Below, piece after piece: positions 1,497-63,267 of a DNA stretch of 64,000 nt. Source of the stretch: Bacteroidales bacterium (GTDB lineage Bacteria; Bacteroidota; Bacteroidia; Bacteroidales; JAGONC01); assembly GCA_035342335.1 (NCBI GenBank), contig DAOQWY010000004.1, positions 123,813-187,812 of the forward strand. Direction: 5' to 3'. The position numbers were made by a program, and so were the translations under genes. The notes below the pieces were generated by a model. That model did not search any database, was not told where the DNA came from, and saw nothing but the letters and a program-made list of their open reading frames with translations. Each line of letters begins with the position of its first letter. Positions within the stretch are counted from its first letter, which is position 1.

Positions 1497-1620
1497 AAGA
1501 ACCTCCTTTTTTTTGAGACCTTTTCATATGTTAAATTGTTAAACTGCTAATTGCTGATCCTTCGGGCTTCGCCCTCAGGACATGCTGCCAACTGCCTATT
1601 ATCAGGCTGCCAGTATAAAA
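1497..1620 (-). repeat. Upstream cassette copy E1, same family as 18229..18337 and 63002..63160
   Basis: Read on the minus strand it has collinear blocks CAGTTGGCAGC, GTCCTGAGG, GGATCAGCAATTAGCA, then A/T-rich GTTTAACAATTTAACA, about 45 nt before the ATG at 1496. It contains the triloop hairpin GGGC-TTC-GCCC. Confidence 0.55.
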
Positions 1621-3597: not shown

Positions 3598-3662
3598 AAA
3601 TCCCAAATCCCAAGGTCCAAAATCCAAACAAATCCCAAATTCCAGGATCCAAATTACAAACA
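3598..3662 (-). repeat. Inverted GGGATTTG-type word tract (CCAAATCC on the plus strand) upstream of the ATPase
   Basis: The sequence is AAATCCCAAATCCCAAGGTCCAAAATCCAAACAAATCCCAAATTCCAGGATCCAAATTACAAACA. A short counterpart, CAAATCCTAAATTCCAAG, lies at 1718..1735. Confidence 0.75.
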
Positions 3663-3664
3663 CT

Positions 3665-3961
3665 GTGATTGCCCTATTTAAATCCTGATTCATTCCCCCT
3701 TCCCTTGCCCATAGGGCATATCGTATTGTAGCAGGTAGGTGACCGAATTCCCTTTCCTTGCCCGCAGGGCATATAGTATTGTAGCATCATGGCATGAAAT
3801 GATTCAATACCCCGTAGGGGTTCCAGATTTATGTTTATCCCCTACGGGGAATAAAATCATTGGATGATCCCATTGAGCTACAATTCTTTAACCGCTACGC
3901 GGTAAAATACAAATAAAGGAGTACAGATCAGTGTTTTACTGCATACAGTTTATTTGATAAG
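3665..3961 (+). repeat. Direct repeat DR-2 (297 nt), partner of 1739..2035
   Basis: See DR-1. The core 3789..3961 is identical to 1863..2035. Confidence 0.9.
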
Positions 3962-4058
3962 GTGATTTGTTTGTGATTTGGATCTTGTGATATGTTTGGA
4001 ATTTGGATGTTGGGATTTGGGATTTGCCTGGATTATGGTGCCTGGGATTTGGGATTTG
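3962..4058 (+). repeat. GGGATTTG/GGAATTTG word tract following DR-2
   Basis: The sequence is GTGATTTGTTTGTGATTTGGATCTTGTGATATGTTTGGAATTTGGATGTTGGGATTTGGGATTTG...CTGGGATTTGGGATTTG. GC hairpins follow at 4072..4093 and 4107..4123 (CCCCGCA-GAA-TGCGGGG). Confidence 0.8.
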
Positions 4059-8417: not shown

Positions 8418-8425
8418 TAATTTTG
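8418..8425 (+). promoter_or_regulatory. Candidate -7 box (TAATTTTG) for the hydrogenase island
   Basis: It matches TAnnTTTG and lies about 50 nt upstream of the ATG at 8475. A CTTG sits about 21 nt upstream as a weak -33. Confidence 0.35.
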
Positions 8426-8474: not shown

Positions 8475-8987
8475 ATGGAAGCACAGAAAATTTTAATTGT
8501 AGATGACGACGTTGATGTGATCAATGTCATCACGACTATCCTCGAAAATGAAGGATATGAAGTTATTTCAGCCTTTGATAAGGATGAGGGGCTGCAGCTG
8601 GCCCGTGATAAAAAGCCTGATCTGGCTATTCTTGATGTGATGATGACAACCCATTATGAGGGATTTGAGATGGCCAAGGAATTGAGTGAAGATCGCACCT
8701 TCCGGACGATGCCCGTATTGATGCAAACTTCCATCGATGTTCTGGTAACCACCAAGGAAAGTGTCAGGGAAATGGCCCGGGAGTTCAGAGCCGATCCTCA
8801 TTACAGTGAATTGCAGGTGATCCTGGTCCGGGATGTGGTTTCAGGTAACTGCGGGGTGGATTACCTTACGGAAGACGGACGCTCGATCTGGTTACCGGTG
8901 AACGGTTTTCTCAGAAAACCCGTGGATGCCCGGAAATTGCTCTACGAGATCAAAGCTCAGCTTGAGAAGCAGGCAGCACATTCTTAA
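8475..8987 (+). CDS. Stand-alone receiver (REC) protein with an insertion of about 50 aa and no output domain
   Basis: The sequence shows ILIVDDDVDV...KPDLAILDVMM...MQTS...FLRKP. It is a paralogue of 15245..15631. Confidence 0.85.
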   Translation: MEAQKILIVDDDVDVINVITTILENEGYEVISAFDKDEGLQLARDKKPDLAILDVMMTTHYEGFEMAKELSEDRTFRTMPVLMQTSIDVLVTTKESVREMAREFRADPHYSELQVILVRDVVSGNCGVDYLTEDGRSIWLPVNGFLRKPVDARKLLYEIKAQLEKQAAHS

Positions 8988-16801: not shown

Positions 16802-18228
16802 AATTCACACCCGAAAAATACCGTATTGAAGATGTGTCAGGAACGCCCTTCATCGATCCCGGGGAGATCTGGAATTATTTGGATCATGCGCAGCCGACCA
16901 TGGACCGGGTCAGGCAGATCATCGACCGGTCGCTGAGCAAGAACAGGTTGTCGCTGGAAGAGGTTGCCGTGCTGATCAAAGCCGATGACCCTGCGATGAT
17001 CAGTGCCATTAAGGAAGGTGCACGGAAACTGAAAGAGATAGTCTACGGACAGCGCATCGTGCTTTTTGCTCCGCTGTATGTGGGCAATTCGTGCATTAAT
17101 AACTGCAAATACTGTGGTTTCAAGGCATCCAACCGGCAGGCCGTCCGGCGAACCCTTACCCAGGAGGAGCTGATCGGGAATGTCAAAGCCCTGGAGGACC
17201 AGGGGCAGAAACGCCTCATCCTGGTTTATGGGGAACATCCTTCGTACACTCCGGAGTACATCGCCGGCACGGTTCGCACGGTGTATCAGGTGAAGAAAGG
17301 CAACGGGGAGATCCGAAGGGTGAACATCAACGCGGCGCCTATGGATGTGGAGGGATTCCGGACCATCAAACAGGCGGGCATCGGGACCTACCAGATCTTC
17401 CAGGAAACCTACCACCCGGAAGCCTACACCTGGTATCACCCCAGCGGCCGGAAGAAGGACTATGCTTACCGGCTCGTATCGCTCGACCGCGCCCAGGAGG
17501 CCGGTATCGACGATGTGGGCATAGGTGCGTTGCTGGGACTGTACGACTGGCGCTTTGAGGTAATGGCCCTTGTGAGGCATACCAGCCACCTGGAGGCCTG
17601 TTTCAATGTGGGCCCGCATACCATTTCTTTCCCAAGAGTGCAGGATGCATCGGATTACCAGATCGATGAGCGATACAAGGTTACGGATGAAGATTTTGTC
17701 AGGCTCATTGCCATCCTCCGCCTGGCTGTCCCCTATACGGGTATGATCCTGACAGCCCGGGAGCCTTCCTTTATCAGGGATGAAGTACTCCAGTTTGGTT
17801 GCTCCCAGATCGACGGCGGTACACGCCTGGAATTGGGTGCCTATGCGGAAGAGGATCGGAAAAAATTACAGAATTTAAACCTTGAACAATTCCTGATCAA
17901 TGATAATCGCTCACTGAATGAAGTGATCGATGAGCTGATCCATCAGGGATATATCCCATCCTTTTGCACGGCCTGCTACCGCAAAGGCCGTACTGGTGAG
18001 CATTTTATGGAATTTTCGGTACCGGGATTCATCAAGCGGTTCTGTACCCCGAATGCCCTGCTGACACTGGCTGAATACCTGTGTGACTACGCGCCTGCTG
18101 CCACACGGGAAAAAGGCTGGGCACTGATTGAAAAGAACCTGGGTGAGATGGAAAAGTCGGCCGGCAAGGATGCCCTGCTCGAACGCATGGAAAGAATCAA
18201 AAAGGGGGAAAGGGACCTGTATTTTTAA
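16798..18228 (+). CDS. hydG: [FeFe]-hydrogenase maturase HydG (radical SAM)
   Basis: 476 aa. It has the radical-SAM motif CINNCKYCGF and a C-terminal CTAC-x22-C motif. It has an ATGA overlap with the upstream kinase. Confidence 0.93.
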   Translation: MKFTPEKYRIEDVSGTPFIDPGEIWNYLDHAQPTMDRVRQIIDRSLSKNRLSLEEVAVLIKADDPAMISAIKEGARKLKEIVYGQRIVLFAPLYVGNSCINNCKYCGFKASNRQAVRRTLTQEELIGNVKALEDQGQKRLILVYGEHPSYTPEYIAGTVRTVYQVKKGNGEIRRVNINAAPMDVEGFRTIKQAGIGTYQIFQETYHPEAYTWYHPSGRKKDYAYRLVSLDRAQEAGIDDVGIGALLGLYDWRFEVMALVRHTSHLEACFNVGPHTISFPRVQDASDYQIDERYKVTDEDFVRLIAILRLAVPYTGMILTAREPSFIRDEVLQFGCSQIDGGTRLELGAYAEEDRKKLQNLNLEQFLINDNRSLNEVIDELIHQGYIPSFCTACYRKGRTGEHFMEFSVPGFIKRFCTPNALLTLAEYLCDYAPAATREKGWALIEKNLGEMEKSAGKDALLERMERIKKGERDLYF

Positions 18229-18337
18229 TAGTCGGCGGTCAGCAGCGGAGCGAAGCGACGTCCCGACGGAAGCCAGGATCAGCAGCCAGCAATTTGACAA
18301 TTTGACAATTTAACAATTTATCATATACGATTTTAAG
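18229..18337 (+). repeat. Upstream cassette copy E2 filling the hydG-hydF spacer
   Basis: It has blocks TAGTCGGCGG, GTCCCGACG, GGATCAGCAGCCAGCA, then CAATTTGACAATTTGACAATTTAACAATTTATCA (18290..18323). That 34-mer is the exact reverse complement of 63002..63035. The ATG follows 14 nt later. Confidence 0.8.
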
Positions 18338-22268: not shown

Positions 22269-22372
22269 GTGTGCAACACCTCGTTACCTCCCCAAAGAAT
22301 CCTGCCGCACGCTGCCATTTTGGCCTTCTTGTCGATCATCAGTTCTTGGAAGGGCTCCTTTTAACGGGTTTT

Positions 22373-22402
22373 CGGGTCTACGGGTCTACGGGTCTACGGG
22401 TC
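22373..22402 (+). repeat. Tandem octamer array (CGGGTCTA, 3.75 copies)
   Basis: The sequence is CGGGTCTACGGGTCTACGGGTCTACGGGTC, in the spacer between convergent gene ends. Confidence 0.9.
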
Positions 22403-22440
22403 TTCTTTCTACTGATAGGGAGGATCGTGATTTGATTAAG

Positions 22441-22478
22441 TGGAATTTGTCTGGAATTTGGATCCTGGAATTTGGAAC
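22441..22478 (+). repeat. GGAATTTG word tract
   Basis: The sequence is TGGAATTTGTCTGGAATTTGGATCCTGGAATTTGGAAC, the same word family as 2050..2110 and 3962..4058. Confidence 0.8.
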
Positions 22479-25093: not shown

Positions 25094-25186
25094 GTGGCAA
25101 TCAAAATGGGATGGTGACAAAATTACAAAAATCTTGCCTGAAACTTCTTTTTATGGTGTTCTTATCCTGTAAAACAAGCTTTTTAG

Positions 25187-43607: not shown

Positions 43608-43777
43608 CAAATGTCAATTTGAAAGAAGTCACAAAATTATGGATTTTTTGGATTGGAGTTAGGATTCGAACCTTCGAAACATGATATAAAACCGACATTA
43701 TCCTATGAAAAAAAGATTAACTTCGTACGCTTCAATGTATATCGAACTTTATATAGTTTGGATTGTTAATAGATCGT

Positions 43778-46556: not shown

Positions 46557-46706
46557 GGGGTGTGTTAAAATACATTTTTTTAAACACGAAGGTACTCAAA
46601 GTTCTTCACAAAGGAACACTAAGTTTCTGATATCCAATAATAATACTTGGTGTCCCTTCGTGTAAACCTTCGTGTTCCTTCGTGGTTAAATACTTATGGC
46701 ACACCC
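46557..46706 (+). repeat. Palindromic intergenic element A, bounded by terminal inverted repeats (about 150 nt)
   Basis: It is an imperfect hairpin built from CACGAAGG/CCTTCGTG words. It is roughly 85-90 percent identical by eye to the reverse complement of 49808..49960. It lies between the convergent 3' ends of gltA and acpH. Confidence 0.85.
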
Positions 46707-47351: not shown

Positions 47352-47456
47352 CGTGATTTTTTAAGTGATGAGGGACAAAATTACTTATAATTGGTATAAA
47401 TAAGCTTCCCGGCCGGAAAAGAAAAAGCAGTCCTGGTTCGACTGAAGGATTTTTTT

Positions 47457-49807: not shown

Positions 49808-49960
49808 GGGGGTGTGTCATAAGTACTTAACCACTAAGGAACACGAAGGTTTTCACAAAGGGACACAAAGTAATATTACTGATTATCAATCCCTTAGTGT
49901 TCCTTCGTGAAGCACTTTGAGTACCTTTGTGTTTAAAGTATGTATTTTGACACAACCTCG
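49808..49960 (-). repeat. Palindromic intergenic element B, an inverted copy of element A
   Basis: Its reverse complement aligns with 46557..46706 end to end. Its right terminus TTTTGACACAACCTCG matches the terminal repeat of element C. Confidence 0.85.
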
Positions 49961-51261: not shown

Positions 51262-51402
51262 TTTACGAGGTTGTGTCAAAAGGGATTATTATAATGAAAA
51301 CCGCAAAGACGCAAAGACGCAAAGTCCTCATAATCAATATTTTTTTTCTTAGCGGCTTCGCGGCTTTGCGGTGTAAAATGACTTTTGACACAACCTCGTA
51401 AA
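51262..51402. repeat. Palindromic intergenic element C with perfect 21-bp terminal inverted repeats
   Basis: TTTACGAGGTTGTGTCAAAAG (51262..51282) is the exact reverse complement of 51382..51402. The core has CGCAAAGA x3 (51302..51324) facing GCGGCTTCGCGGCTTTGCGG. It lies between convergent gene 3' ends. Confidence 0.9.
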
Positions 51403-63001: not shown

Positions 63002-63160
63002 TGATAAATTGTTAAATTGTCAAATTGTCAAATTGTTAGTCCTTGTTCTATTGTTCTATTGCTGACTGCCGATCCCTCGTCACTGAGTTCCTCGGGACAG
63101 GCTGCCGACTGGCTACCGGCTACCGGCTACCGGCTACCGGCTACTGGCTACCGGCTACCG
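63002..63160 (-). repeat. Upstream cassette copy E3 abutting the hutH start codon, expanded by word arrays
   Basis: 63002..63035 is the exact reverse complement of 18290..18323. It then has (TAGAACAA)x2, GGATCGGCAGTCAGCA, GTCCCGAGG, CAGTCGGCAGC, and the heptamer array GCTACCG x7 (63111..63160, one GCTACTG variant) preceded by the degenerate copy GCTGCCG (63101..63107). Confidence 0.85.
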
Positions 63161-63267
63161 ATAAAGCGAGGTACGGTTGATCTTGATCTTGAATTCGAGG
63201 ATGGAGTTACGCATGGGATGAAATAGTCATTTGCTCGGCCCTTCGGGCCTCGCGTCATTACTGGTTA

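Follow-up and report, generated by a model that had tools for sequence, protein, structure and literature searches.

A probable three-module mosaic repeat, rather than a portable promoter, in the hydG–hydF spacer of an uncultured Bacteroidales bacterium

The DNA analysed here (the window, 64 kb in length) comes from an uncultured Bacteroidales bacterium, whose genome has been recovered in independent assemblies of several samples from digesters and sludge (e.g., JGI 3300010356 and GCA_035341615.1). In its hydrogenase maturation cluster, the hydG and hydF genes are separated by a spacer (copy B), and similar spacers precede two unrelated genes: one for a secreted protein at the window edge (copy A) and hutH, coding for an aromatic amino acid lyase (copy C). 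Pfam supports the identity of hydF, hutH, and hydG, as well as of hydE and hisS, and the start codons downstream of the spacers are located at 1496, 18338, and 63001. The initial annotation considered these spacers as one cassette, possibly a portable promoter or 5' leader that would give hydF–hydE their own transcription start. Our analysis suggests instead, with fair probability, that the hydG–hydF spacer is a copy of a clade-specific three-module mosaic repeat of the REP/BIME or STRR kind, which is co-transcribed with its neighbours and does not represent a portable promoter.

The collinearity of the three spacers was confirmed: when read toward the downstream genes, they carry homologous blocks in the same order. 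The 34-mer CAATTTGACAATTTGACAATTTAACAATTTATCA is an exact duplicate (18290–18323 on the plus strand and 63002–63035 on the minus strand), which was matched in none of 100 shuffles. For the block GGATCRGCANNNAGCA, the whole window yields three matches, one in each spacer and none elsewhere, whereas 0.2 would be expected. Two shorter motifs proposed as shared blocks, GTCCYGASG (5 matches vs. 1.9 expected) and AGTYGGCRG (4 vs. 1.6), are not significant if taken alone, although each is represented by one copy per spacer and keeps its place in the order.

All copies are built on a common plan, in which 7-nt units are followed by a short hairpin, one or two more 7-nt units of the CAGCAGT type, A/T-rich 8-nt units, and ATG (Table 1). 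The 5' heptamers are represented by seven GGTAGCC units in copy C and by remnants of AGTCGGC or GGTCAGC in copies A and B, while the octamers are CAATTTGA (with AA and AT variants) and CAATAGAA. The latter unit is present also in the loci L048, L050, L053, L060, and L087 (L numbers are our handles for the compared loci). According to the scores of the hairpin covariance model, the focal copy B is the most degenerate of the three: it reaches only 10 bits (E about 5, at 18260–18284), and its second hairpin is a worn, type-1-like one. If three positions are allowed to be degenerate (Y/R), its double-hairpin 38-mer (18247–18284) is met again in another genome, at a single independent locus (L062/L084), and in the orthologous spacer L085, six clean heptamers beginning TAGTCGGC AGTCAGC occupy the place of its heptamer remnant. 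The exact type-1 core of copy A has eight matches at six distinct loci; its predicted folding energy is −19 kcal/mol (z −2.2), and that of the copy C hairpin is −20.1 kcal/mol.

Table 1. Modules of the three copies and the small gene bounding copy C (window coordinates; TRF, Tandem Repeats Finder)
Feature	Position	Strand	Remark
Copy A, irregular heptamer-like 5' flank GGCAGCCTGATAATAGGCAGTTGGC	1587..1611	−	AGTTGGCAG block at 1585–1593
Copy A, type-1 GA-hairpin core AGCATGTCCTGAGGGCGAAGCCCGAAGGATCAGCA	1552..1586	−	covariance model 55.5 bits, E 1e-15
Copy A, two octamers CAGTTTAA, CAATTTAA	1531..1546	−	ATG of a 498-amino-acid open reading frame 34 nt further downstream
Copy B, heptamer-type array remnant TAGTCGGCGGTCAGCAGC	18229..18246	+	directly after hydG stop TAA (18226–18228)
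Copy B, degenerate double GA-hairpin, variant T3: mini-hairpin GGAGCGAAGCGACG, then TCCCGACGGAAGCCAGGATC	18247..18280	+	covariance model 10 bits, E about 5
Copy B, 3' heptamer remnant AGCAGCCAG	18281..18289	+	within the GGATCRGCANNNAGCA block
Copy B, octamer array CAATTTGA x2, CAATTTAA, CAATTTAT, plus CA (the 34-mer)	18290..18323	+	TRF period 8, 3.8 copies
Native hydF leader TATACGATTTTAAG	18324..18337	+	kept, with few base changes, in close relatives carrying octamer arrays
Copy C, heptamer array GGTAGCC x7, then AGTCGGC	63104..63160	−	TRF period 7, 7.1 copies, 95% matches
Copy C, type-2 GA-hairpin core AGCCTGTCCCGAGGAACTCAGTGACGAGGGATCGGCA	63067..63103	−	covariance model 56.6 bits, E 4e-16
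Copy C, heptamer remnant GTCAGC, CAATAGAA x2, CAAGGACTAA	63036..63066	−	TRF period 8 at 63043–63061
Copy C, octamer array, identical to the copy B 34-mer	63002..63035	−	ends right at hutH ATG (63001)
Conserved 19-codon small open reading frame (MRNSILEFKIKINRTSLYR*), 5' bound of copy C	63155..63214	−	amino-acid conservation in four species, synonymous changes

The hairpin core is carried by 51 loci of the JGI metagenomes, about 40 of them with the core inside heptamer arrays, and by four loci of reference genomes; after removal of duplicates and chance matches, about 45 distinct copies remain. Their hosts are uncultured Bacteroidales from digesters and activated sludge. When a strict pattern was applied to one genome per species, true copies were revealed only in two Bacteroidota assemblies, RA.bin148 and STD1_41; about 23 of the 27 strict-pattern matches in reference genomes were discarded as chance ones, located inside coding sequences of unrelated phyla. 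A covariance model constructed from 26 distinct aligned cores found further copies, within the range of hairpin variants that the retrieval pattern allows to be seen. In 26 of 45 cores, a flank of 21 nt reached a period-7 self-identity of 0.7 or more, as compared to 1% of random 21-mers. The heptamer units are RGTCRGC, also GGTAGCC and CAACAGT, and the octamer units are CAATTTRA and CAATAGAA. Where the cores are in tandem (three in L043, two in each of L053 and L078), they are all arranged head to tail with periods of 34, 36, and 41 nt. Viral contigs gave no match, and a phage origin of the family was rejected for this reason.

Type-1 (TGTCCTGAGGGCGAAGCCCGAAGGATC, copy A) and type-2 (TGTCCCGAGGAACTCAGTGACGAGGGATC, copy C) hairpins have the same predicted fold: an outer stem of one G·U and four further base pairs, G·A/A·G in tandem, an inner stem (with a second tandem G·A in the case of type 2), and a three-base loop nearly always ended by A (GAA, GCA, GUA, and others), within a total length of 27–33 nt. 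In the 26 aligned cores, pair 10–28 is U-A in 15, C-G in 10, and mismatched in one, at positions where the retrieval pattern permitted any Y with any R, while pair 16–22 is represented by five types (C-G, A-U, G-C, G-U, and U-G). The observed covariation score was reached by none of 500 shuffles, and it collapses in slid registers. The L041 copy has A-U and G·U pairs in place of the inner tandem G·A. In 26 of 26 variants, folding is more favourable for the sense strand than for its complement (−10.2 vs. −6.1 kcal/mol), which would be anticipated if G·U and G·A pairs contribute to the structure. These data show that the hairpin is under structural constraint.

The element is clearly polar with respect to genes. 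The upstream gene is on the strand of the hairpin in about 22 of 24 judgeable loci, with its end usually 5–60 nt ahead of the core. As for the downstream gene, about 17 loci have it on this strand, and about 6 have it in convergent orientation. The heptamer array starts at the stop codon itself in 12 or more loci (e.g., TAGTCGGCAG). The octamer array lies 2–34 nt from ATG, and its unit often runs into the start codon (CAATG). Octamer arrays face an ATG-started long open reading frame (ORF) not more than 45 nt away in 13–15 distinct loci, as opposed to 2 in reverse, which supports the leader-like orientation proposed in the initial annotation, although not its portable promoter. Genes were assigned here by greedy longest-ORF calls; a test using stop-to-stop ORFs was dropped, as spurious antisense ORFs made it noisy. 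Copies A and C occupy the minus strand and copy B the plus strand, each matching the local genes, while no switch of GC skew occurs across the window; therefore, the orientation follows transcription, not replication. Since the element is on the sense strand of the neighbouring genes, it would be co-transcribed with them.

Comparison of orthologous spacers demonstrates how such an element is assembled. In species with 77–79% identical HydF and conserved gene order, the hydG–hydF spacer is of 31 nt in L086 (TAATTGACAATTTATTATAATGGGATTCAGG, no arrays), 95 nt in L087 (octamers only), 81 nt in L085 (six heptamers and three octamers, no hairpin), and 109 nt in the window (heptamer remnants, the degenerate hairpin, and four octamers); in the outgroup L088, it is an unrelated sequence of 135 nt with a classical terminator. 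The L087 octamers are built of other units than those of the window, while L085 has one unit fewer. The ATG-proximal stretch (CAATTTATCATATACGATTTTAAG in the window) is recognisable with few base changes in L085 (TATCAGATGTAGC) and L087 (TATAAGATTTTAGG), and it is shorter in L086 (TATAATGGGATTCAGG). Retention of this stretch in the relatives means that the cassette was assembled stepwise on a native leader, and the L086 spacer shows that hydF does not need the cassette.

The hisS–hutH spacers, compared in five species with 85–100% identical HutH, provide a parallel example. A small conserved ORF is kept in all of them, while the sequence from its stop to the hutH ATG differs throughout: the heptamers are GGTAGCC, GGTCRGC, CAGCAGT/CAACAGT, or GTTGGCA; the hairpin is of type 2, of type 1, an unrelated module, or none; copy number varies; and the octamer sets are different as well. 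In the most distant species there is only an A-rich octamer-like leader. These spacers retain the architecture while the unit and hairpin types are exchanged. The hutH octamer array of the window is identical to its own hydF array and unlike the orthologous hutH arrays; this concerted evolution suggests that arrays within one genome are subject to copy-paste or gene conversion. Taken together, the two comparisons show that orthologous sites stay fixed while modules at them appear, disappear, expand, and replace one another. The hydF spacer is base-for-base identical in four independent same-species assemblies from different samples, with no strain-level length variation; therefore, the turnover is slow at the strain scale, and the copies are unlikely to be assembly artefacts. 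Three short-read assemblies (L003, L004, and L005) end 44 nt before the hydF ATG, inside the 34-mer duplicated at hutH, since contigs break at this exact repeat.

The gene directly upstream of copy C is not hisS, it is the small ORF of 19 codons (63214–63155), whose TAG stop falls within the first heptamer. ORFs of this kind (18–27 codons, MRNSxLEFKIKINRTALY*) are located between hisS and hutH in the window and in L089, L090, and L092, and may encode a leader peptide for hutH. At copy A, the secreted-protein gene has a strong Shine-Dalgarno-like GGAGG (1502–1506, minus strand) 5 nt before its ATG, with A8 ahead of it. This is unusual in the phylum, where ribosomes generally ignore Shine-Dalgarno sequences.

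Copies of the family persist also inside genes, always in the sense orientation, in which the common heptamers are stop-free in every frame. In the acetoacetate-CoA ligase gene of RA.bin148, heptamers, a type-1 core, and heptamers again form an in-frame insert of 66 nt, which adds 22 residues absent from the solved homologue (PDB 4wd1). Close relatives of this protein (82–90% identical) have different inserts at exactly the same site, while it is empty in one relative at 88% identity and in more distant ones, L093 being among the empty cases. The DNA junctions show no target-site duplication, and the right end of the insert adjoins an in-frame ATG. This site, following IIFRGE (L017 1–300, L094, L095, and L093), is a hot spot for in-frame repeats, with at least 8 different inserts of 14–31 residues in proteins that are 82–100% identical. 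Another in-frame copy is located ahead of a C-terminal domain of the type IX secretion kind, and the third one (L053 2188–2256) consists of two tandem type-1 cores bridging gldF-like and gldG-like ORFs. In L053, an open frame of 868 codons extends from the gldF-like end to the gldG-like start without an intervening stop, and it may reflect either a read-through or a fusion created by the repeat.

We suppose that the element consists of independently evolving modules: heptamers running from the stop codon of the preceding ORF, a hairpin enclosed by these heptamers, and octamers reaching up to or into the next start codon. Their turnover may involve replication slippage together with copy-paste or gene conversion between the dispersed copies. 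If arrays expand and contract by slippage until coding boundaries are reached, this would explain why they span the distance from the stop to the start codon. The hairpin may function as an intercistronic or 3' RNA structure, which would either hinder decay or mark a site of processing, as REP does in operons of E. coli, for example at malE–malF. The octamers are candidates for a zone where ribosomes could load in the absence of a Shine-Dalgarno sequence, being rich in A/U, free of AUG, and unstructured, and hydF is most likely read within a transcript starting upstream of position 8475. Bacteroidetes are known to initiate translation without Shine-Dalgarno sequences, the initiation being tuned by low structure and by A at −3 (PMC6847099).

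Several points weigh against this interpretation. Co-transcription and any RNA role are deduced from orientation, and the orientation counts are approximate because genes were called by a simple longest-ORF procedure. Covariation is visible at two or three pairs only, since the retrieval pattern fixed most positions of the outer stem. The fold of the copy B hairpin is not better than that of shuffled sequence, so at hydF the structural part may be decaying. The copy number, about 7 per Mb from a hand count with the strict pattern on long contigs, is a lower bound. Moreover, a selfish element without function would give the same pattern of turnover.

Such a selfish DNA-level element remains a serious rival, although we give it a clearly smaller chance than the co-transcribed mosaic, with which it is compatible. 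Its hairpin would be a single-stranded DNA substrate of an HUH/Y1 transposase (REP/RAYT, IS200/IS605-like), inserted and excised seamlessly, with heptamers as landing sites and no function in RNA. The acetoacetate-CoA ligase insert, with no visible target-site duplication and with an empty site in a closely related gene, agrees with this view, as do the difference of module types at one site between species, the cores nested or tandem in arrays, and the mismatched hairpin with its mini-hairpin of the GCGAAGC type, which is very stable as DNA. However, the orientation tracks the local gene strand within 64 kb, unlike the prediction of lagging-strand targeting; the palindrome has no GTAG or CGTC tag; the tandem cores are direct, not inverted; and copies are absent from the viral contigs. 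None of the 9 window proteins scanned with Pfam is a transposase, no genome-wide search for transposases having been made. Somewhat bolder, and a shade less probable in our opinion, is the suggestion that an undescribed modular spacer-building system, polar with transcription, operates here: heptamers would be the landing pads, GA-hairpin modules would be inserted and lost seamlessly, with no target-site duplication, even at an in-frame hot spot of an enzyme gene, mobility would be mediated by single-stranded DNA or RNA, and the CAAUUURA tract would be a transferable enhancer of initiation for ribosomes not relying on Shine-Dalgarno pairing.

The third possibility, which we consider unlikely, is that octamers or heptamers form a binding-site array for a regulator of the S1, Csp, or CsrA type and unite a translational regulon, as was proposed for the TAACTGA repeats. 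The forward placement immediately before the ATG of unrelated genes would fit it and parallels the repeats of PMC4679880. However, the downstream genes (hydF, hutH, etfB-like, and others) have no common function, unit sequence and copy number vary freely between close species at the same gene, and L086 has a single octamer-like unit.

The portable promoter of the initial annotation, which would provide hydF–hydE, hutH, and the edge gene with their own transcription starts, seems still more doubtful. Apart from the orientation of octamer arrays toward start codons, it could be supported by the TTTG and TTGACA contained in the octamers: in copy B, a sigma-70-type scan gave a 10/12 match at 18302–18331 (with TACGAT), which would place the start near the hydF ATG. 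This match arises because the octamer contains TTGACA, and such a consensus is not known to be used by the primary sigma factors of Bacteroidota. In copy C, the best match has its −10-like hexamer within the hutH coding sequence. The −7 box (TAnnTTTG), which together with a −33 TTTG characterises primary-sigma promoters of Bacteroidota, is absent from all three cassettes, even if relaxed to NAnnTTTG or TAnnTTTN. Elsewhere in the window, 11 genes have it at a distance of 18–66 nt upstream of their starts, typically the first genes in same-strand runs, including the response regulator that opens the hydrogenase cluster (box at 8418–8425). Canonical TAATTTTG boxes are found 24–49 nt before first genes at 8418–8425, 25118–25125 (−), 43632–43639 (−), 47376–47383 (−), and elsewhere, providing a ready map of likely promoters in the window. 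Further, the 31-nt orthologous spacer dispenses with the cassette; cores and heptamers occur between convergent genes and in frame within ORFs, where a promoter would have no purpose; and the cassette is not a single portable unit, as its modules come and change singly in orthologous spacers. Orientation, orthologues, in-gene copies, and promoter scans together make it doubtful that the promoter is portable or that the operon is interrupted at hydF. In annotation, neither a promoter nor an operon break should be assigned to the gap of 109 nt within the hydrogenase maturation genes.

The least probable is a phase-variable switch, in which slippage in the 7- and 8-nt arrays would toggle downstream genes within a population: species do differ by whole units (four octamers at hydF in the window and three in L085), but the spacer is identical in the four same-species assemblies, the downstream genes are housekeeping or metabolic ones, not surface antigens, and unit changes in non-coding arrays cause no frame shift.

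Some other candidates were rejected. None of the three cassettes has a terminator-like site or a T tract, the hairpin being followed by CAGCAGT units, which is not compatible with an intrinsic terminator. A riboswitch or another shared regulatory leader was discarded since the downstream genes are unrelated and the element occurs also in convergent spacers and coding sequences. Likeness to the hammerhead core CUGAnGA...GAAA (in CUGAGG...CGAAGG and the L094 variant CUGAUGAGCGAAGCGAAA) is superficial, as stem II would be only 2 bp; the family cores gave no hammerhead match in Rfam, in a scan that did not include the L094 variant. The Rfam scan of the window at gathering thresholds detected one tRNA only. 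When cassettes B and C, together with seven loci of the family, were scanned by E-value, the matches were limited to chance ones with microRNAs.

The spacers of the window hold many further 7–8 nt arrays and small hairpin modules; therefore, the cassette exemplifies what is general in this genome. The hisS stop is immediately followed by a hairpin module CGCGAGG-stem-CCGAGCAAATGAC with a tandem G·A (63233–63254, minus strand), which is found also in L089, L090, L050, and L062; in orthologues its inner stem is swapped (GGCCC/GGGCC vs. GGCGC/GCGCC), and one of them has a nested hairpin. A 300-nt direct repeat (1721–2020 and 3647–3946, 92% identity) contains small hairpin modules of the CCCCGTAGGGG, GCCCATAGGGC, and CCGCTACGCGG types, which vary between species in the DUF4126/CHU_C spacer, and is flanked by GGGATTTGG-type arrays at 2050–2113, 3598–3662, and 3962–4058. 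In the convergent spacer after the DUF4126 gene, there are arrays of ACGGGTCT (five units) and TGGAATT/GGAATTTGGA at 22364–22403 and 22441–22477; in three relatives, this spacer has entirely different modules, and the tandem run of L085 contains an assembly gap. Inverted repeats of 128 nt (46579–46706 and 49810–49937, 87% complementary) are composed of CACGAAGG/CCTTCGTG octamers. They are two copies of another hairpin module and do not bound a transposon, since they enclose housekeeping genes (an ACP phosphodiesterase gene and a 2-oxoacid:ferredoxin oxidoreductase pair). Between convergent genes at 51262–51402, there is a long hairpin, whose arms contain three CGCAAAGA and complementary CTTTGCGG-type octamers; here an octamer array may have given rise to a terminator acting in both directions.

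The family may be compared to several known systems. Cyanobacteria reportedly possess STRR heptamer arrays, into which small dispersed repeats (SDR) have been inserted (Mazel 1990; Elhai 2008, Genome Res 18:1484, as cited in PMC3116915). The resemblance includes intergenic tandem heptamers (GGCTACC x7.1 at 63111–63160), small, sometimes nested hairpins inside them, and presence varying among close relatives. The CAACAGT unit of L038, L089, and L094 is the same as STRR3. The differences are that our family belongs to another phylum and has another hairpin, while its arrays extend from stop to start and are joined to octamers. Rickettsia palindromic elements (RPE) are sequences of 100–150 bp located in frame within coding genes, where they add a peptide segment without breaking the ORF, and they have no tandem arrays. 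Palindromes of our family also persist in frame, but most of its copies are intergenic.

REP and BIME elements of enterobacteria and pseudomonads are short imperfect palindromes, present in tens of copies or more, which form mosaics with other motifs, are largely restricted to intra-operon spacers and the 3' sides of genes, are transcribed together with their neighbours, and can affect mRNA stability through their hairpins, as described in PMC2817692 and PMC3733652. Our hairpin is similarly an imperfect palindrome of 27–33 nt, inside the 20–40 nt range expected of REP, with about 45 distinct copies mostly in spacers. However, its core consensus (AGCnTGTCCYGAGG...GARGGATCRGCA) lacks the terminal GTAG/CGTC tag that PMC3733652 describes, and its tandem cores are all direct, while neighbouring REPs alternate in orientation (PMC2817692). 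In addition, embedding of the palindrome in 7-nt arrays, strong polarity with transcription, and in-frame copies within genes distinguish the family from REP/BIME. Direct repeats of the TAACTGA heptamer are described in Beggiatoaceae, Cyanobacteria, and five Bacteroidetes (MacGregor 2015, PMC4679880). Like our arrays, they are mostly intergenic and forward, end one to a few nucleotides ahead of the start codons of unrelated genes, and change in length by whole units, in their case between strains. The difference is that our unit is CAATTTRA or CAATAGAA, with period 8 and no sequence relation to TAACTGA, and that it is accompanied by a hairpin and by heptamers forming a second array; arrays of TAACTGA did not occur here.

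Since the family has neither the REP tag nor the BIME alternation and differs from the TAACTGA repeats in unit and period, we count it among the small mosaic extragenic repeats in general and do not assign it to any named family. To our knowledge it is undescribed, as there is no Rfam match and the nearest paper found treats a different heptamer. Its peculiarity is that spacers are filled from stop to start, that the architecture is kept while the modules are swapped, and that the direction of transcription is followed. If the octamers do promote initiation, they would represent a natural transferable leader for ribosomes that ignore Shine-Dalgarno sequences. The family unites features that have so far been met separately in REP/BIME, STRR/SDR, the TAACTGA repeats, and RPEs.

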